A stretch of 64,000 nt of DNA from Persephonella sp. (GTDB lineage Bacteria; Aquificota; Aquificia; Aquificales; Hydrogenothermaceae). The stretch is from positions 10,139 through 74,138 of the forward strand of contig NZ_WFPS01000008.1 of assembly GCF_015487465.1 (NCBI RefSeq), read 5' to 3'. Both the position numbers and the translations under genes were made by a program. Positions 3,566 to 56,637 of this stretch are shown here, piece by piece. How positions within the stretch are numbered: position 1 is the stretch's first letter; the number at the start of each line of letters is the position of its first letter. The notes under the pieces were generated by a model. That model had not been told where the DNA came from and searched no databases. It was given only the letters and a program-made list of their open reading frames with translations.

Positions 3566-4003
3566 ATGTTCAGGCAGATTACAATATTTTTGCTTATCTG
3601 TTTTTCAATGGCTTTTTCAGAAGAAGTAGTAAAAAAAATTGAGTCAATGATAATCTCCCGTATTTCTTCTGTGGTTACCGGAAAACAATACAGAATAAAA
3701 ACATATGTAACAGATAACATGAAATATATTTTTAAATACTCTAAAATATTAATACCCAGTTATGAATGTGGTAAAGCAGATATAGTAATAGCTGGAGAAC
3801 AACTAAAAAACAAAGATTGCGAAAAAAAGGTTATGATAGTGACAAAATATTATTTATTAAGAAATTATAAAAATGCTGTGGCAGCATTTTACTGGTACAA
3901 GGGGAGGCCAAACATCTTATTTATAAAAGAAAGATTGGAAAGGTTTGGTATAAACCTACCTGAGAAATACAAAAAATACACCGATTCGGAAAAGGATCTG
4001 TGA
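3566..4003 (+). CDS. small secreted protein, possibly YfiR/DUF4154-like
   Basis: Signal peptide. It lies 1 nt after the receptor stop and has a GTGA overlap with the downstream GGDEF-EAL gene. The family assignment is a weak by-eye guess. Confidence 0.45.
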   Translation: MFRQITIFLLICFSMAFSEEVVKKIESMIISRISSVVTGKQYRIKTYVTDNMKYIFKYSKILIPSYECGKADIVIAGEQLKNKDCEKKVMIVTKYYLLRNYKNAVAAFYWYKGRPNILFIKERLERFGINLPEKYKKYTDSEKDL

Positions 4004-10634: not shown

Positions 10635-11725
10635 TGTTAATAACAAAAATCTTCAAGCTGGAAGACTTCAGGGAAAGCATTCCCTTTACAGCTATAGGTG
10701 CAAGAACATGTTATTCCTCTGGAAATCTTGAATATCTCTTAAATGATCCAAGGGTTGTAAGCAGGGAAGAAAGGGCAAAATTTCTGTCAAAGCTGGGTAA
10801 CTACAAACATTTCAGCGTTTTTGCCCATTCATTTGCTTACAAAGACCTTTCAGATGTTGATGAAAAAATTATTGACAGCTACCTACCTGAAGAAATAAAA
10901 AATCTACCAAAAAAAGAAAAGGCAAAAATTACTGCTATGAAGATAGCCTCAACAAAGTTTAAGTCCCACTACAACCCAGAATACCCAACAGTAATAGGTA
11001 TCTCCCTCCGCCACTACCTTGAGGATCTTCTTGCCGAAGATGAGGAAAAATATTACAAAACATTTGAAAAGATGGCAGACTTTGATATTCCCATAAAGCC
11101 CCTTGGCTCAAGAGGAAACACAACTCTTATAGGTCTTTTAAAAGATTACGACGGATATGCCGTATTCTTCATACAGGACATATCAAGAACAATGACCCAT
11201 CAGCTTGTAAGACATACTGCCCTTAATTACAGTCAGAGAAGCCAGAGATATGTAAGAGAAGATGAAAACCTTCTCATTATACCTCCATCTGTAAAAAAAT
11301 CTGAGTTTGAGCTACAGGACAAAACCCTTGTTGAAAACTATCTGAACCTGATTAACAGCTACAAAGCATTTATTGAGAGAGCTGATATAAAGGAAAATTT
11401 AAAAGGGGAAGTTATATCAAGGATCAATGATTTTACTGAAGAATATAAAAAGACAGAAAGACTAAAGCTTGAGGATATTTTTAGACTTACAGACCAGCTT
11501 GCCCAGACTGTTTATGACCTTTCAGTTTACAACGGAAAGGTAAAAAGAGAAGATGCAAGATTTATACTTCCACACGGTAGAAAAACAACAATTGTTGTAT
11601 CGGGAACTATCAGCTGGATAAAGGATTTTATTGTAAAAAGAACAGATCCCCACGCCCAGTGGGAGATACAGAATGTTGCAAACCAGATGAAACAGCTACT
11701 ATTAGAGCAGGGTATAGATGTTTAA
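10634..11725 (+). CDS. thyX: flavin-dependent thymidylate synthase, long form
   Basis: ThyX signature RHTALNYSQRSQRY and REDARFILP. ATG at 10634 (TGATG overlap, AAGGAG 7 nt upstream). About 360 aa, so it carries large insertions relative to typical ThyX. Confidence 0.85.
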   Translation: MLITKIFKLEDFRESIPFTAIGARTCYSSGNLEYLLNDPRVVSREERAKFLSKLGNYKHFSVFAHSFAYKDLSDVDEKIIDSYLPEEIKNLPKKEKAKITAMKIASTKFKSHYNPEYPTVIGISLRHYLEDLLAEDEEKYYKTFEKMADFDIPIKPLGSRGNTTLIGLLKDYDGYAVFFIQDISRTMTHQLVRHTALNYSQRSQRYVREDENLLIIPPSVKKSEFELQDKTLVENYLNLINSYKAFIERADIKENLKGEVISRINDFTEEYKKTERLKLEDIFRLTDQLAQTVYDLSVYNGKVKREDARFILPHGRKTTIVVSGTISWIKDFIVKRTDPHAQWEIQNVANQMKQLLLEQGIDV

Positions 11726-13304
11726 AAGAAAAATAAAGCTTCTAAAAAGATTTAAAGATATATCAGCAACTTTATCAAAGCTGGGCTTTTACAATATATA
11801 CGACTACTTTAAAATTCTTTTCGGAATTGAGGTTGAACCGGGGGCAAAACCAAGAAGAATTAGAGAAGCCCTTGAAAAACTGGGTCCATCTTTCATAAAA
11901 CTCGGTCAGATACTCAGCACAAGGCCGGACATTGTTCCTGTTTACATCATAGATGAGCTTATAAAACTTCAAGATAGGGTTGCTCCTGTAGATTTTGGGA
12001 TCATTCAAAAGACCTTAAACAGAAATTATGGAGACAGGCTATATGAAATATTCTCATATATAGATCCAACTCCCCTTGCATCAGCTTCTATATCACAGGT
12101 TCATGTGGGCTACTTAAAAACAGGAGAAAAAGTTGCTATAAAAGTAAAAAGACCTAATCTTGAGCAGATCATTCAGCTTGATTCAGAGCTTATGTTAATG
12201 GTTGTTGATTTTCTTGAAAGACATTTTAAGAATGTAAAAGAGTTTAATCTCAAAGGTGTGATCCATCAGTTTAGAAGAACAACGCTTCAGGAAGCTGATT
12301 TTTCCATAGAAGCACAGAACATAAAGATATTTCAGGAAAACTTCAGAGATTATCCCGGTTTCAAAGTGCCTAAATGTTTTTATGATATATCAACACCCGA
12401 AGTTCTCATAACAGAGTTTATAGAAGGAACAAAAATATCTGAGGTTGAAACACTGAAAAAAAAAGGTCTTGATCCTGAGGATATCGCTGTCAGGCTGACA
12501 GATGCATACTTTAAGATGGTTTTTATAGATGGGGTTTACCACGCAGACCCTCACCCAGGAAATCTATTTGTATTAGATGACGGAACAATTGTAGCTATTG
12601 ATTTTGGAATGATAGCATTCCTGTCAAAAACCAAGAAAAAATACTTTTTTGATTATATTATAGCCGTTACAACCCTTGATCTGAACCTTGCGATACAGTT
12701 TTATGAAGGCTTTAATATGTTCACACCAAGAACAGATTTTGGGAACTTTGAGGCTGATCTGCAGTTTTTCCTTGAAAAATACCACAACAAAAGGTTAGAC
12801 GAGATAAACTTAAGGGAGATGATTGAGGACATAATAAGTTTTATAAGAGAAAATCATCTAAAACTTCCAACAGATATAGCATATCTTGGAAAAGCTGCCC
12901 TTAACCTTGAAGGAACGGTAAGAAAGCTGAATCCGACTTTTAACCCTACAGAAAGACTGAAAAATTTTGTTGGTGTTTCAACAAAAGATTACATAAAAGA
13001 AAAGTTATCTGAGATAAGAGATGTTACAGAACTTTCTTTTTATTTAATATTCAAGATAGAACATATATACAGGCTTCTAATCAGAGAAAGGGTTACATTC
13101 CAGATTATATTCAAGGATCTGGAAGAACTTCAAAAATTTTATAAAATGCAGACAGGAAAGATAGCATTTGCGATATTATTTGTTGGCTTGCTCATATCAT
13201 CTGCACTTTTTTATATGTCTGGAAAAGATACAACAGGTCTGATATTACTTGTAATATCATTTTTTGCAGGTTTAATATCTTTCTACAAAGTATTTAGATT
13301 TTAG
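11718..13304 (+). CDS. ABC1/UbiB family atypical kinase
   Basis: LGPSFIKLGQILSTRPDIVP, ASASISQVH, HADPHPGN and two C-terminal TM helices. Confidence 0.85.
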   Translation: MFKRKIKLLKRFKDISATLSKLGFYNIYDYFKILFGIEVEPGAKPRRIREALEKLGPSFIKLGQILSTRPDIVPVYIIDELIKLQDRVAPVDFGIIQKTLNRNYGDRLYEIFSYIDPTPLASASISQVHVGYLKTGEKVAIKVKRPNLEQIIQLDSELMLMVVDFLERHFKNVKEFNLKGVIHQFRRTTLQEADFSIEAQNIKIFQENFRDYPGFKVPKCFYDISTPEVLITEFIEGTKISEVETLKKKGLDPEDIAVRLTDAYFKMVFIDGVYHADPHPGNLFVLDDGTIVAIDFGMIAFLSKTKKKYFFDYIIAVTTLDLNLAIQFYEGFNMFTPRTDFGNFEADLQFFLEKYHNKRLDEINLREMIEDIISFIRENHLKLPTDIAYLGKAALNLEGTVRKLNPTFNPTERLKNFVGVSTKDYIKEKLSEIRDVTELSFYLIFKIEHIYRLLIRERVTFQIIFKDLEELQKFYKMQTGKIAFAILFVGLLISSALFYMSGKDTTGLILLVISFFAGLISFYKVFRF

Positions 13305-13314
13305 GGAGGTTTTG

Positions 13315-14040
13315 ATGGGACTGAGATCTTTTATCATACCGGCTGTTGACATAAAAGAAGGAAAAGCTGTAAGGCTTTTTAAAGGTGATCCTAATGCTGT
13401 TACAGTTTATGGAGATGATCCTGTCAGTATTGCAAAATTGTGGGAGGAAAAAGGGGCAAAACATCTGCATGTTGTTGATCTTGATGGAGCTTTTGAAGGA
13501 AAGCCAAAAAACTACCGAATAGTTGAAAAGATTGTAAAATCTGTGAGCATCCCTGTTGAGTTTGGGGGGGGATTAAGGAGTTTTGATGCTGTTAAAACAA
13601 TGTTTGATATAGGCGTTGAAAGGGTCGTTATCGGAAGTCTGGCTTATCAGGACAGGGAGCTTTTTCTCAAAATAATTGATGCCTTTCCTGAAAAAGTTGT
13701 TGTCGGGATAGATGCAAAAGATGGAAAGGTTGCAATAAAAGGCTGGCTTGAGAAAACAGATTACACACCTTTAGAGTTTGCCTCACAGTTTGATGATCTG
13801 AATATATGGGGATTTTTATACACAGATGTTAACAGGGACGGGGCGATGGTAGGACCAAACATAGAGGGGACAAAAGAACTTGCAGAAAAACTGAAACACC
13901 CGGTCATAGCTTCCGGAGGTGTAGGAAGTCTGGAAGATGTTAAAAAACTGTATGAAATAAGAAAGTTTGGCGTATACGGTGTTGTTGTAGGTAAAGCCCT
14001 TTATGAAGGAAAAATAAAACTTGAACAGCTGGAGGATTAA
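13315..14040 (+). CDS. hisA: ProFAR isomerase
   Basis: [15 protein letters not shown]...VVDLDGA...GGGLRS...ASGGVGS is the HisA TIM-barrel pattern. ATG at 13315 follows GGGAGG. Confidence 0.9.
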
Positions 14041-40301: not shown

Positions 40302-41855
40302 CTAATCATAATAAAACCTGTCTTTTATAAACTCAAAAACAAAACAGCTTTCTTTTAAAAGTTTTTCATACCTTTTTATATCAACAGGTTTTGGACTTTT
40401 GATATATATCTCATAGGGAACAGCCTTTATAAAACTGTCTTTTATATAGATTATGTTCACTTTTTCTCCGGGATTTACCGTTATACCCTCTTTTATCAGT
40501 GTGCCTGCTGTTTCTGAAATGTCATTTTTAACCCTGTATTCCTCTACTAACTTTGACAGTCTTTTTCTGACAATAAGATCCTGAACACAGAATTTTCCCT
40601 CCCTTAGCATTACAGCGTATTTTTCAAAAAATGTGTCAATATCTGACAGTTTTTTTAAAAGCTCTTTTTTGTTTTTTGCTTTTGACAGGTGGTTCAGGAA
40701 ATCTTCCTGAAACTTTTTAATAAAACGGGGAGTGTCTGATCTTCTCAGCTCAATGCCCCTCACTTTTATCCTGCCGTCTTTAAACTTTCCGTAAAATCTA
40801 TTTGGAACGCCTACACCGTCTTCTTTTGATGGAACAAATACTATCCAGTCATACACACCTTCAAGTTTAACCTCAAAAGGAACTGTCTCCTCCAGCACCC
40901 CTTTATATTTTCTGGAAAGCTTTTTGTTTATATTGTCCTTTAGCTTGTTATAAGCTTCCTCAGTAGCTCCTTTTTTGTATATCCATATACAGTCTGTCAG
41001 TCCGTGTAATAAACTAAAACCTTCTTTTTCTGCTATATCTTTAACAAAAAGAAGAAGATCCCTTCCTATAGCTGTTGTTGTTTCGTGGGACTCTATTCTT
41101 CCAAAAACAGCATTTTTGTAGCCTAAATAACCAAAGCTGACAACCAGAAGCCATTTTATACCTATCTGCCTTCTGTCGTATTTATCTCCTTCTTTTTTCT
41201 TTAGCTTTTTATATTGTTTTCTTCTTTCTATTAAAAACTTCAGAGTTTTTGGGAGTATCCCCTCTTTTTGTGTGCATATACGGTAGCCGGCGGTAGGCAG
41301 TCTGTGAATGCATTTTTTGTGCTTGCAGTTTATTGTTTCGTAAGAAAGATTGTAGTTTGCGATAATTGATGGATACATTGAGAAAAAATCAAGCTCTGCA
41401 ACATTTTCATAAATTCCTGCCTCCGGTCTGAATGTCAGTCCTCCCCTGTCTATTTTCAACAGGTCAACTGCTGTTTTTGGATCTTCAGGATTGCTTTTCC
41501 TGTAGGGGATCAGATAACCCTGTTCAAAGGCTATCTTCATCTCAAGTGATGTTATTGGCGTTCCTATGGTTGTCCTTGATAGCTGTTGCAGGGGCAATGA
41601 GGATATCCTTGACAGCTCAATCATACCGTCAAGACCTATCTCTCTGTAGAAAAATGAGTTTGAGGGATCTATATGTATCCTTCCTAAGAAAAATGACGAG
41701 TCCGGCATAAAAACAGTTTTTCCGTATGAAAAGAATGATCTTCCTTTCTTTAAAACAGGAACTCCCCCTTCCCTGCTGAGTGATGAAACCCCTGATCTTA
41801 AAAGATTTGGAACAATAAGCTGATCTCCGTGTTCTATGATAAGTATGTCAGGGTC
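40302..41855 (-). CDS. family B DNA polymerase, C-terminal segment (-1 frame relative to the N-terminal segment)
   Basis: The frame is open from 41855 (DPDILIIEHGDQ...) through the ORF-track Met at 41708. Motif A LDFFSMYPSIIANYN, motif B-like KWLLVVSFGYLGY, motif C HGLTDC, thumb-like NRFYGKF..KVRGIELRRSD. Confidence 0.85.
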   Translation of the reverse strand, partial: DPDILIIEHGDQLIVPNLLRSGVSSLSREGGVPVLKKGRSFFSYGKTVFMPDSSFFLGRIHIDPSNSFFYREIGLDGMIELSRISSLPLQQLSRTTIGTPITSLEMKIAFEQGYLIPYRKSNPEDPKTAVDLLKIDRGGLTFRPEAGIYENVAELDFFSMYPSIIANYNLSYETINCKHKKCIHRLPTAGYRICTQKEGILPKTLKFLIERRKQYKKLKKKEGDKYDRRQIGIKWLLVVSFGYLGYKNAVFGRIESHETTTAIGRDLLLFVKDIAEKEGFSLLHGLTDCIWIYKKGATEEAYNKLKDNINKKLSRKYKGVLEETVPFEVKLEGVYDWIVFVPSKEDGVGVPNRFYGKFKDGRIKVRGIELRRSDTPRFIKKFQEDFLNHLSKAKNKKELLKKLSDIDTFFEKYAVMLREGKFCVQDLIVRKRLSKLVEEYRVKNDISETAGTLIKEGITVNPGEKVNIIYIKDSFIKAVPYEIYIKSPKPVDIKRYEKLLKESCFVFEFIKDRFYYD

Positions 41856-42460
41856 TTTTTTTTTATAAAGTCTGAAAGCTCATCTGTCTGGCTGTCAAAT
41901 ATCAGTGATCTTCCTTCAAAATTGACTATAAGAGGTGGAAGATTTTTTGTGTGATTTGGGTTTTCCCCTTCTGTTTCAGGTTTTATCTCCATAATTTTCA
42001 GGGGAAATACCATGTAGTCTGTACTTGAGTAATCATCAATCTTTTTGTAAAGGGTTTTTCCATTTTTACAGATCTCCTCAAGCTGGCAGAAAGGAAATAT
42101 CTTTTTTTCAAACATAAAAAGCTGTGAAGGGGTCAGCTGGAGGTTGTAAAGGTCTGTTTCCTGAAACTCTTTTCTACTTTTTACAAAGTTTACCGCCTTA
42201 TGGTAAACGGCAGGACTGTCTGACACGATTTTAAAAAGCTGTATCTCCCCATCAATAAGATCTTTTTTTCTTGTTTTTTTTATCTTTATACTGTTTCCAA
42301 ATCTCTTTTTTAGCAGTTTTAAAGCTTTTGTATCCTCTGCTTTGATAAAAAAGTAGGGTCTGAACCTTCTGAAAACAGACTTTCTATCTCCTTTTTCTCC
42401 TATGAGCCACAGGACTATACCGTAAGAGTTTGAGTAAACATCAAGGATCTGGTATCTCAT
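41834..42460 (-). CDS. family B DNA polymerase, N-terminal segment (ends at TAG 12 nt past the A9 tract)
   Basis: MRYQILDVYS...FRPYFFIK is a PolB N-terminal-domain pattern. The frame ends ..DFIKKKTLTYLS*. Confidence 0.8.
   Translation of the reverse strand: MRYQILDVYSNSYGIVLWLIGEKGDRKSVFRRFRPYFFIKAEDTKALKLLKKRFGNSIKIKKTRKKDLIDGEIQLFKIVSDSPAVYHKAVNFVKSRKEFQETDLYNLQLTPSQLFMFEKKIFPFCQLEEICKNGKTLYKKIDDYSSTDYMVFPLKIMEIKPETEGENPNHTKNLPPLIVNFEGRSLIFDSQTDELSDFIKKKTLTYLS
41855..41864 (-). other. A9 tract + G containing an in-phase A AAA AAG heptamer at the polB frame break
   Basis: The coding strand reads ATA AAA AAA AAG ACC. A -1 slip (or an A10 tract) reads GAC CCT GAC... and fuses both polB segments without a stop. 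Confidence 0.7.
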
Positions 42461-42689
42461 CTTTTATCCTCTGGATCTGTTTTTCTATCTCAATCAAAAT
42501 TCCAAAGAGGATGATTTCCATAGGATATACAGATGGGGCGTTTCCTATAGCCTGTGAATGCTTTTTTGCGTAAGAAAAAAGCCTGTCAAGTATCTGTCTG
42601 TCTTCTTTCCTCAAGGCTTTTCTAAACTCTGACAGCTCTTTTTGTTTCAGTTTCACAAGCTGTGTTGCAGAAGGCACAGTTTTTCCCAT
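42441..42689 (-). CDS. hypothetical 82-aa helical protein (lexA-polB cassette member)
   Basis: Its start lies 1 nt after the upstream stop codon, and its 3' end overlaps the polB start by 20 nt. No recognised motif. Confidence 0.5.
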   Translation of the reverse strand: MGKTVPSATQLVKLKQKELSEFRKALRKEDRQILDRLFSYAKKHSQAIGNAPSVYPMEIILFGILIEIEKQIQRIKDEIPDP

Positions 42690-42690
42690 C

Positions 42691-43137
42691 TCAGTTGTCC
42701 ATTGATATGTTTGTTATCATGAAGTTTTCTCCAACAACAAAAACCGGAATATCAATCCTGTTTATAAATGCCAGAGCAGATGTGAAAGAGTTTTCCCTCT
42801 CTTTATCAGGAATGCTCTGATCCTTTAAAAGAGTTTCTATGTCTGATATAACAAGAACATCAGGGTTCTCTTTTATAGCTTTTTCCACAGCTTTTTTAAG
42901 CTGAAATATATTAAATACTCTTATTATTTTTATTTTCTCCAGAAGCTTTTCAGCATTAATCTTTTCAAATTTTGCAGCGTTAGATATCAAAAAAGGATTA
43001 AACCTATTCCCACAGTCTATAAGAGATACTTTCTGTGATCTTCTTGTAAATTTGTAAATAAGGTAGTGGTAGTGATATTTTCCGTTTTTTATCTCTATTT
43101 TGTTTTTTAGCCGATGAAGAAGATGTCCTTTTTTCAT
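42691..43137 (-). CDS. RecA/RadB-fold-like protein lacking a Walker A motif (ImuA/SulA-like)
   Basis: KVSLIDCGNRFNPFLI...IKIIRVFNIFQL...NPDVLVISDIETLL matches the strand/helix pattern after the P-loop in RecA/Rad51/KaiC-type cores. No GxxxxGK[ST] is present. The ATG lies 1 nt after the lexA stop. Confidence 0.4.
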   Translation of the reverse strand: MKKGHLLHRLKNKIEIKNGKYHYHYLIYKFTRRSQKVSLIDCGNRFNPFLISNAAKFEKINAEKLLEKIKIIRVFNIFQLKKAVEKAIKENPDVLVISDIETLLKDQSIPDKERENSFTSALAFINRIDIPVFVVGENFMITNISMDN

Positions 43138-43138
43138 C

Positions 43139-43756
43139 TTAAAACCTCCTTTTCAGTCCTTTAAATGATCTTATGATCCCTTTTACTACCCCCTGAACCT
43201 GAACCCTCTCAGCCTCAAAATACATAGGCTCCATATTAGAGTTTGCCGGAACGAGCTTCACAAAACCTTTTTCCCGGTAAAATCTTTTCAGAGTTGCCTC
43301 CTCCCCATCAATAAGAACAACGGCAACCTCTCCGTTCAGAACATCTTTTCTGTTTTCAACGATTATTATGTCACCGTCTAATATGTGATCTTCAATCATT
43401 GAGTATCCTTTAACCCTCAGAGCGTAGCAGTTTTCACAATCTATCAGGTCTGTAATATCCACATGCTCAAAAATATCTTCCTGAATCTGTATAGGTTCCC
43501 CTGCAGCTATCTCCCCATAAAAAGGAAATCTTAATGGGTCTTCATCAAACAACCTATCCCTGTTTATTCTGAATTTTCCCCTTCCTGTTTTCTGCAGGTA
43601 TCCTTCCTTCACAAGCTTTTGCAAATGCTCATGTATCGTTGAAACAGCAGAAAGACCAAAATGATTGGCGATCTCTTTCAGTGTCGGGTTGTAACCTTTC
43701 TGGTAGGTAAAACGGGCTATAAACTGCAAAATCTCTTTCTGTCTTTTTGTGAGCAA
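43139..43756 (-). CDS. lexA: LexA repressor (S24 peptidase)
   Basis: N-terminal winged helix (LTKRQKEILQFI...GYNPTLKEIA), cleavage-site region YGEIAAGEPI, Ser in GYSM and Lys in ATLKRF. TTG start with AGGAGG 8 nt upstream. Confidence 0.9.
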   Translation of the reverse strand: MLTKRQKEILQFIARFTYQKGYNPTLKEIANHFGLSAVSTIHEHLQKLVKEGYLQKTGRGKFRINRDRLFDEDPLRFPFYGEIAAGEPIQIQEDIFEHVDITDLIDCENCYALRVKGYSMIEDHILDGDIIIVENRKDVLNGEVAVVLIDGEEATLKRFYREKGFVKLVPANSNMEPMYFEAERVQVQGVVKGIIRSFKGLKRRF

Positions 43757-43852
43757 TTTCCTAACCTCCTGATTTTTAATATAACCGAAAAAAAACCGAA
43801 AATCAAGATGATAAAAATCAATAAAGGTTTATATTTTTAGTGGAGGGTAAAT

Positions 43853-55938: not shown

Positions 55939-56637
55939 CTATGAAGCGTCAATGACAAACTCAACCCTTCTGTTTTTTGCTCTGTTCTTTGGAGTGTCGT
56001 TAGGTGCTATAGGTCTGTAAGGACCGTATCCCCTTGCAGATAGATATTTTTCAGGATAACCACACTGGAGAAACATTTTTAAAATGTTAAGAGCTCTGTA
56101 TGCAGAAAGCTCAAGATTTGAACTGTATCTTTTAGTTCTTATTGGAGTGTTGTCTGTATGCCCTTCTATAACCACGGTGAAGCCTGCCTGTTTTAACCTT
56201 CTGCACAAATCAAATATGTATGGAACTGCCTCTGGATACGGGTTTGCCCTTCCTGGTGGAAAAAATTTATCAGTGTTTATCCTAAATCTGATTATACTGC
56301 CGTGCTGGATAATGTCTGCCTGAATTCCGGCTTTTTGTAATTTTGCCTGTATGTCGTAAAGGGCTTTTGTAAGCATTTTTTTTCTTTTTATCTTTGGATA
56401 CATATCTGGAAACTCAAGGGGAACGTTTGACTGGTTCAAAAGTTTTTGCTCAAGATATATCTTTCTTCCACCTAAAGATTCTGTAACCCCTTTGATAACC
56501 ATGTGGAACTTTTCAAGGGATATGGTGCCCATTGAAAACAGAAGGATAAAGAATGTAAGGAGAAGGGACATCAGGTCCCCAAAACTTATAAGCCAGCCGG
56601 GTATTTTTTTGCATTCTTCTTTTTTTTTGCGTGCCAT
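55939..56637 (-). CDS. motB: flagellar stator protein MotB paralog (proximal copy)
   Basis: WLISFGDLMSLLLTFF TM with Asp, and an OmpA-like C-terminus (IEGHTDN.P, NLELSAYRA, NRRVEF). ATGTAATGG overlap region with motA. Confidence 0.85.
   Translation of the reverse strand: MARKKKEECKKIPGWLISFGDLMSLLLTFFILLFSMGTISLEKFHMVIKGVTESLGGRKIYLEQKLLNQSNVPLEFPDMYPKIKRKKMLTKALYDIQAKLQKAGIQADIIQHGSIIRFRINTDKFFPPGRANPYPEAVPYIFDLCRRLKQAGFTVVIEGHTDNTPIRTKRYSSNLELSAYRALNILKMFLQCGYPEKYLSARGYGPYRPIAPNDTPKNRAKNRRVEFVIDAS

Follow-up and report, generated by a model that had tools for sequence, protein, structure and literature searches.

We have analysed a 64,000-nucleotide (nt) stretch of DNA from Persephonella sp., a bacterium of hot vents (contig NZ_WFPS01000008.1, positions 10,139 to 74,138 of the forward strand; hereafter the window), whose minus strand carries a gene for a PolB2-type family B DNA polymerase (polB2), and our analyses have found that the reading frame of this gene is broken at a run of nine adenines (A9) in the same way in all of the Persephonella-clade lineages compared. 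Because the break is conserved, both halves of the gene are constrained and the segment that follows the break has no start codon, full-length PolB2 very likely requires recoding of one kind or the other, by RNA polymerase or by the ribosome. Slippage of RNA polymerase, by which A9 in the gene would become A10 in the messenger RNA (mRNA), is our preferred candidate for the main route (probability of roughly 0.55); it is favored because the whole of the A9 run is conserved and is accompanied by neither a conserved Shine-Dalgarno (SD) sequence nor a conserved downstream structure. Both the slippage itself and the machine that slips are what we infer from sequence comparisons.

The polB2 strand at the site, as read from the window, is GAC TTT ATA AAA AAA AAG ACC CTG ACA TAC TTA TCA TAG. 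The features of the gene around it (aa, amino acids; ORF, open reading frame) are the following:

41856..41864, minus strand: A9 tract, the putative slip site, invariant in 9/9 lineages of the Persephonella clade.
41855..41861, minus strand: in-phase A_AAA_AAG heptamer (X_XXY_YYZ), read in the frame of the 208-aa ORF.
41834..41836, minus strand: zero-frame stop codon TAG, 6 codons past AAG (in relatives, 4–18 codons past AAG).
41834..42460, minus strand: ORF1, the zero-frame ORF of 208 aa, covering the PolB2 N-terminal domain and the first part of the exonuclease-like domain.
40302..41855, minus strand: continuation in the -1 frame, 517 codons and a stop, covering what remains of the exonuclease-like domain together with the D(K/R) loop IDRGG, palm, fingers, and thumb.
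40302..41708, minus strand: 468-aa ORF of the ORF list, starting at Met41708.
41709..41855, minus strand: "orphan" segment of 49 conserved, start-less codons, reachable only via a frame change.

In the zero frame, the codons AAA (41860..41858) and AAG (41857..41855) are preceded by A41861, and G41855, which directly follows the A9 run, doubles as the first base of an Asp codon in the -1 frame. Read from this base (GAC CCT GAC ATA...), the -1 frame meets no stop in the 49 codons before Met41708 and none from there until the one at 40302, and it contains 517 open codons in every complete lineage. An initial annotation of this DNA had already given the strand reading, the A9 run, the phase of the heptamer, the 208-aa zero-frame product, and the 49 stop-free codons, and every detail proved accurate when the window was read again. 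The full-length PolB2 has 719 aa (...FIKKK-DPDILIIEHGD...), with a junction peptide that spans KKK/DPDILIIEHGDQ; the current annotation shows two ORFs in its place, a "hypothetical protein" and a "DNA polymerase domain-containing protein". An A9 run on its own is unremarkable because A/T runs of at least 8 are common in the window, which has a guanine plus cytosine (GC) content of 36.5% and contains 20 of them, 3 being 9 long; the exact conservation of this one in nine diverged lineages is evidently not due to chance.

The locus DNA was compared in nine split lineages (viz. the window, L001, L006, L005, L002/3/4/12, L013, L007/8, L009/L018, and L010/11), which share 58–91% aa identity. In all nine, G follows a run of exactly A9 and the -1 frame continues with GAY CCN GAY, always in the same phase, so that the comparison of tract length and heptamer among orthologs, which had been proposed as a check in the initial annotation, has shown the break to be conserved. 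The break is present in the isolate genome of Persephonella marina EX-H1 (protein ACO04556.1 / WP_012676793.1) and recurs in over 20 copies assembled independently of each other (NCBI, ENA, JGI, and Logan), and the N-terminal ORFs that were found separately all end in KKKTL... or KKKIP..., the signature of A9. Among the matches listed from a collection of 5.8 billion proteins, the closest homologs (at 100%, at 85%, and six from Persephonella at 61–66%) cover the C-terminal part only, full-length homologs, those of Sulfurihydrogenibium included, start at 55% identity, and no A10 (intact) allele of the Persephonella clade is found. A search of genome contigs with the fused protein recovered one locus (L006), while a metagenome scan with the pattern [LIF][LI]KKKDPD, which cannot match split genes, gave one more split locus (L018) together with distant intact ones. 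In one JGI contig (L004) extra breaks are seen in lexA and in the N-terminal ORF of polB2, at ~2206 and 3211 in the coordinates of L002; these are 10-N scaffold gaps, and decay was rejected as the reason for an N-terminal ORF in two pieces.

The split lineages are monophyletic in 197 of 200 bootstraps, with internal Kimura distances of up to 0.58, and the break has a single, ancient origin, the sister lineages being intact. At the corresponding site, intact relatives read TTA AAG AAA AAA GAT (LKKKDPD), ATA AAA AAA GAC (IKKDPD), GAA AAA TTT GAT, or AGA GAA GAC. Because of these readings, and because a distant PolB2 has an in-frame A9, the Persephonella state looks like an in-frame A10 that has lost one A. 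The distant gene lies on metagenome contig Ga0164310_10001350 (L019, ~3590-3620), encodes an intact PolB2 of 32% identity, and reads CTT AAA AAA AAA GAT CCC GAT (LKKKDPD) at this place; in view of its A9, long A runs appear to arise repeatedly at the homologous spot of polB2.

The uniform tract length also bears on phase variation at the DNA level, in which replication slippage would switch the gene between A9 (off) and A10 (on), a subpopulation of cells would carry an intact polB2, and the gene would serve as a mutator contingency locus. Homopolymer tracts are classic switches (PMC3711429) and a switchable mutagenic polymerase would be biologically sensible, but tract-length polymorphism is absent from the nine lineages and the more than 20 assemblies, all of which have A9 (although consensus assemblies would hide a minority of A10 cells), and no full-length close homolog occurs among the protein matches listed. 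We regard phase variation as very improbable.

Between the main lineages, the ratio of nonsynonymous to synonymous substitution rates (dN/dS) is 0.11–0.33 in the N-terminal half and 0.06–0.17 in the C-terminal half, at a saturated proportion of synonymous differences (pS) of 0.6–0.85, and both halves of polB2 are under purifying selection. For the 49 codons past the site, the corresponding ratio of proportions (pN/pS) is 0.29 in the -1 frame vs. 1.17 and 1.95 in the other two, which shows the -1 frame to be the coding frame after the site. Third codon positions vary at 49 of 49 codons downstream (in eight lineages) and at 12 of 12 upstream, and at none inside A9. Directly before the run stands ATA, TTA, or CTA, and because this codon changes but always ends in A, it is the full A9 run that is conserved and not the A6G heptamer alone. 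Given [LI]KKK, the codon usage of each lineage, and six saturated lineages, the chance of the A9 codon configuration is 7e-5; the KKK tripeptide is itself variable in intact orthologs (IKK, EKF, RKE, HRE, and others).

A homopolymer sequencing error, or a recent inactivating mutation that has left a pseudogene, would also give a broken frame, and A9 is an error-prone context on some sequencing platforms. This was one of three options that the initial annotation had left side by side, and it has become virtually untenable, whereas the other two, viz. recoding by the ribosome or by RNA polymerase, are strongly supported. Against an error or a recent mutation stand the identity of the break across assemblies made independently (NCBI, ENA, JGI, and Logan), its presence in an isolate genome, the dN/dS values far below 1 in both halves at saturated dS, and the single ancient origin; as far as the comparative data reach, this explanation is refuted. 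Pseudogene-like decay of the downstream part in relatives, which the initial annotation had also considered, is not borne out, with all 517 codons open and the C-terminal half under the constraint given above.

That annotation pipelines call two ORFs would agree with a true split gene, in which a C-terminal protein with its own translation start would work alongside the 208-aa protein as a second subunit, or in which just one piece is functional; some archaea have family B polymerases of two subunits. However, no ATG, GTG, or TTG is found in the -1 frame between the upstream stop and the Asp codon in any lineage, and the first downstream start candidates lie at non-conserved offsets of 14, 49, 72, 86, 91, and 107 codons, without an SD sequence. 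The 49–107 codons past the site are conserved, show purifying selection in the -1 frame, and include invariant residues with no conserved start or SD sequence, and the break falls inside the exonuclease-like fold; a split gene is thus quite improbable.

The position of the break within the fold was located with the fused product. The 719-aa protein matches Pfam DNA_pol_B (PF00136) at 4.7e-36, and NCBIfam NF004416 (type B DNA polymerase) covers its residues 5-705 without interruption at E = 3.9e-128, although the match stays below the equivalog cut-off of NF004416. In an alignment with 18 intact homologs the junction is free of gaps (FIKKK/DPDILIIEHGD vs. ILKKKDPDIIIANYGD and LLIKKDPDIIIANYGD), and P204 and D205 are invariant. 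The junction stretch aligns to FVKEFDPDVIVGYNSNG of the archaeal PolB structure 5mdn, the Exo II lead-in DPDV(I/V)V, a match that is weak alone (i-Evalue 2.2); the earlier recognition of DPDI(L/I)I as the lead-in to Exo II is consistent with both the homolog alignment and this local one. Since the junction aligns to the lead-in, the frame break lies in the middle of the exonuclease-like domain. Features of the PolB2 type are also present, viz. a degenerate DxD, whose first Asp is replaced in HGLTD, and a D(K/R) loop, IDRGG, at residues 337-341, with D490, D338, G340, and G341 invariant among the homologs. The D(K/R) loop and the region just before it make the contacts to PPB2 and iRadA (PMC11791011). 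As both HGLTD and this loop are encoded past the break, the 208-aa product has neither the DxD region nor the partner-contact loop, and it is without the whole catalytic core. The gene appears to encode the catalytic subunit of a LexA-linked PolB2 translesion "mutasome", an assembly of PolB2, PPB2/arCOG07300, and an inactivated RadA to which the bacterial form adds lexA (PMC4104785, PMC11791011). Archaeal PolB2/Dpo2 is reported to be a damage-inducible translesion polymerase (PMC7390963, PMC8764526).

In the mechanism that we prefer, the zero frame would yield a 208-aa fragment ending in the middle of the exonuclease-like domain, whereas RNA polymerase would at times slip on the T9 template and add one A, and the resulting A10 mRNA would be translated normally into the 719-aa protein. 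A smaller share may come from -1 ribosomal slippage on A_AAA_AAG, and the protein would be the same by both routes (...[IL]KKK-DPD...). Full-length polymerase would plausibly be a minority product, and the arrangement may limit the dose of a mutagenic polymerase after SOS induction. In vivo, A9 runs give efficient RNA polymerase slippage, and dnaX of Thermus thermophilus uses one (PMC5009743). Slippage in A/T runs mostly inserts single bases and becomes exponentially more frequent as the run gets longer (PMC5574713); slippage by RNA polymerase gains from this, because the change that is needed at polB2, one additional A, is the dominant product. A cassette of 9 A gave 40% frameshifting in an Escherichia coli reporter (PMC3711429).

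The principal alternative is a programmed -1 shift of the ribosome at the in-phase A_AAA_AAG (or A_AAA_AAA_AAG), in which a single transfer RNA (tRNA), tRNA-Lys(UUU), weak on AAG, would re-pair on AAA in the -1 frame as in E. coli dnaX; as the main route we consider this possible, and clearly the less probable of the two. The zero-frame stop is close behind the site (4–18 codons), as ribosomal frameshifting would have it. The heptamer, which the initial annotation had called dnaX-type, is indeed in phase in all lineages; this carries little weight, for its phase descends from ancestral Lys codons and its G is forced by the near-invariant Asp codon, and the conserved A's, all nine of which are kept, go beyond what the heptamer needs. 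No stimulators of the kind known from dnaX accompany it. An SD-like sequence within 30 nt upstream is lacking in eight of the nine lineages (only L005 has one, GAGGAG at -20), no conserved downstream structure is detected (RNAalifold consensus of -0.85 kcal/mol with 4 pairs; window fold z = +0.28), and an Rfam search around the site returned no frameshift element. Heptamers without stimulators stay well under 1% in E. coli, reaching at most about 10 times a background of 0.055% (PMC4066793).

Several observations nevertheless weigh against RNA polymerase slippage as the main route. P. marina and other Aquificales outside the Aquificaceae, the Hydrogenothermaceae among them, are reported to be without tRNA-Lys(CUU) (PMC4227106), for which reason ribosomal frameshifting stays plausible; the high shiftiness in E. 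coli is put down to its having just one tRNA-Lys (PMC5009743). An assumed tRNA-Lys(CUU) in Persephonella had served as an argument for transcriptional slippage, and it was dropped because PMC4227106 reports the opposite; no tRNA-Lys gene occurs in the window or in the 14 fetched loci. The conserved A's beyond the heptamer amount to one wobble position and one Lys codon, the chance of the wobble A being ~0.008 over six lineages, and they could reflect E-site or poly-lysine effects on the ribosome. Lastly, the two other A9 runs of the window lie in frame within apparently intact genes:

12456-12464, plus strand: A9 encoding KKK in an ABC1 atypical kinase ORF (11718..13304).
56620-56628, minus strand: A9 in the codons for MARKKK, with which a MotB/OmpA-family ORF (55939..56637) begins.

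Because these two genes carry A9 in frame, slippage on A9 cannot be ruinously efficient in Persephonella; if RNA polymerase slipped efficiently there, the ABC1 kinase and MotB genes would give shifted transcripts too, and such slippage would be costly elsewhere.

Transcriptional slippage on A9 in T. thermophilus dnaX was reportedly demonstrated by Larsen and colleagues in 2000, and the rescue of Buchnera and Blochmannia genes by transcriptional slippage is said to have been described by Tamas and colleagues in 2008. The T. thermophilus gene, as it is treated in PMC5009743 and PMC3711429, resembles polB2 in several respects, viz. a thermophilic host, a product that is a polymerase component of DNA replication or repair, A9 in the coding strand, no need of RNA stimulators, and mRNAs with an extra A that are translated normally. 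It differs in that the zero frame gives the long tau and slippage the short gamma, whereas at polB2 the frame of the DNA gives the short product and slippage would give the long one, and in that polB2 encodes a polymerase of the PolB2 family and not a clamp loader. Two-ORF dnaX genes with A10 (PMC3711429) are closer to polB2 in which product needs slippage. With E. coli dnaX the Persephonella gene shares the in-phase A_AAA_AAG and, to judge from what is reported on P. marina (PMC4227106), a host whose only tRNA-Lys is tRNA-Lys(UUU), but it is without the upstream SD and the downstream stem-loop of the E. coli gene, where the shift gives a truncated product, while at polB2 it would give the full-length one. 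The genes with poly(A) tracts in Buchnera and Blochmannia, as presented in PMC5009743 and PMC5574713, are alike in having a chromosomal one-base defect in a long A tract, purifying selection, and presumed slipped transcripts; they belong to degenerating endosymbionts and are usually read as tolerated damage. In contrast, polB2 encodes a damage-inducible mutagenic polymerase in a free-living thermophile, the break is genus-wide, and a limit on dose could be adaptive. In Shigella mxiE and in transposases of insertion sequence (IS) elements, as would be the case here, the extended functional product comes only from transcripts slipped on an A/T run of about 9, but those genes encode a virulence regulator and mobile-element proteins, whereas polB2 encodes a core polymerase of DNA-damage tolerance.

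The broken gene is the last of four on the minus strand (in the order lexA, iRadA-like, PPB2-like, polB2), and the other parts of the operon are as follows:

43778..43806, minus strand: promoter-like TTGATT-N17-TATATT, within 96 nt upstream of lexA, near-identical in 10 loci.
43139..43756, minus strand: lexA, the first gene of the operon (TIGR00498 at 1.6e-49; Peptidase_S24 and LexA_DNA_bind).
42691..43137, minus strand: iRadA-like protein of 148 aa (weak RadA match, E = 0.009; position in the operon conserved).
42441..42689, minus strand: PPB2-like protein of 82 aa with the N terminus MGKT, taken from the ORF list (no Pfam match of its own; counterparts in relatives carry PF26485/DUF8156).

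The PPB2-like ORF overlaps the start of polB2 by 20 nt (42441-42460), which suggests translational coupling, and its MGKT resembles the MGRT arm reported as conserved in PPB2, a helical protein of about 85-90 aa. The spacer of the promoter-like element is a direct repeat, TTCGGTTTTTTTTCGG (43782..43800), of the form CGG-N8-CGG with a period of 11. The element is found in the window and in L002, L005, L007, L009, L010, and L014-L017, thus in split and intact and very diverged lineages, the version in the GC-rich L017 being GTTCGGTTTTTGTTCGG. TTGATT-N17-TATATT with TTCGGTTTTTTTTCGG is probably the promoter of the operon, overlapped by a putative LexA operator; we take the repeat to resemble the GTTC-N7-GTTC direct-repeat LexA box of alphaproteobacteria. 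In apparent gene content and order, in HGLTD and IDRGG, and in the MGKT of the PPB2-like protein, the operon is like the PolB2 mutasome operons described previously (PMC4104785, PMC11791011); unlike at the locus described here, neither of these papers reports a frame break. Truncated sequences were discarded in PMC11791011, and the Persephonella genes would have been dropped for this reason, so that surveys of PolB2 which discard truncated sequences miss the Persephonella clade.

To our knowledge, very few non-mobile bacterial chromosomal genes need a programmed frame change, prfB and dnaX and a handful more among them. In the literature we have found no prior description of Persephonella, PolB2, or a family B polymerase with a frameshift or slippage, and the polB2 break is not mentioned in the recoding review PMC5009743, the GeneTack survey PMC3711429, PMC4104785, or PMC11791011. 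Here polB2 is a new gene for a mechanism whose kind is known, and it would add a genus-wide and anciently fixed case of recoding, in the catalytic subunit of a mutagenic translesion polymerase and in a culturable thermophile (P. marina EX-H1). With A9, an in-phase A_AAA_AAG, a reported single tRNA-Lys, and no stimulators, the site offers a clean natural test of transcriptional vs. ribosomal slippage. The arrangement suggests a control on the dosage of mutagenesis after SOS induction. A more speculative and rather unlikely extension is that the A9 break has been selected as a "second lock" for the SOS mutasome, in which LexA cleavage would start transcription and slippage frequency would cap or tune the amount of active, error-prone PolB2. 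If so, conditions such as temperature, nucleotide pools, or damage-induced factors would set slippage frequency through the fidelity of RNA polymerase or the ribosome, the lock would be a functional analogue of the delay that UmuD cleavage imposes on Pol V, and PolB2 would be the first case of a translesion polymerase gated by recoding in a free-living bacterium.

The surroundings of the operon differ between lineages, ilvB lying downstream of it in the window, L001, and L005, and a methyltransferase gene downstream, with dnaN/gyrB nearby, in most of the P. marina-like loci; the lexA-polB2 cassette therefore appears to have moved within the genus. In one Persephonella metagenome-assembled genome (L009, 111-582), two short fragments of Y1 transposases (PF01797) stand directly upstream of the lexA-polB2 operon. 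Elsewhere in the window, a G8 homopolymer (13564-13571, plus strand) lies inside an intact His_biosynth (HisA/HisF-like) ORF at 13312..14040.

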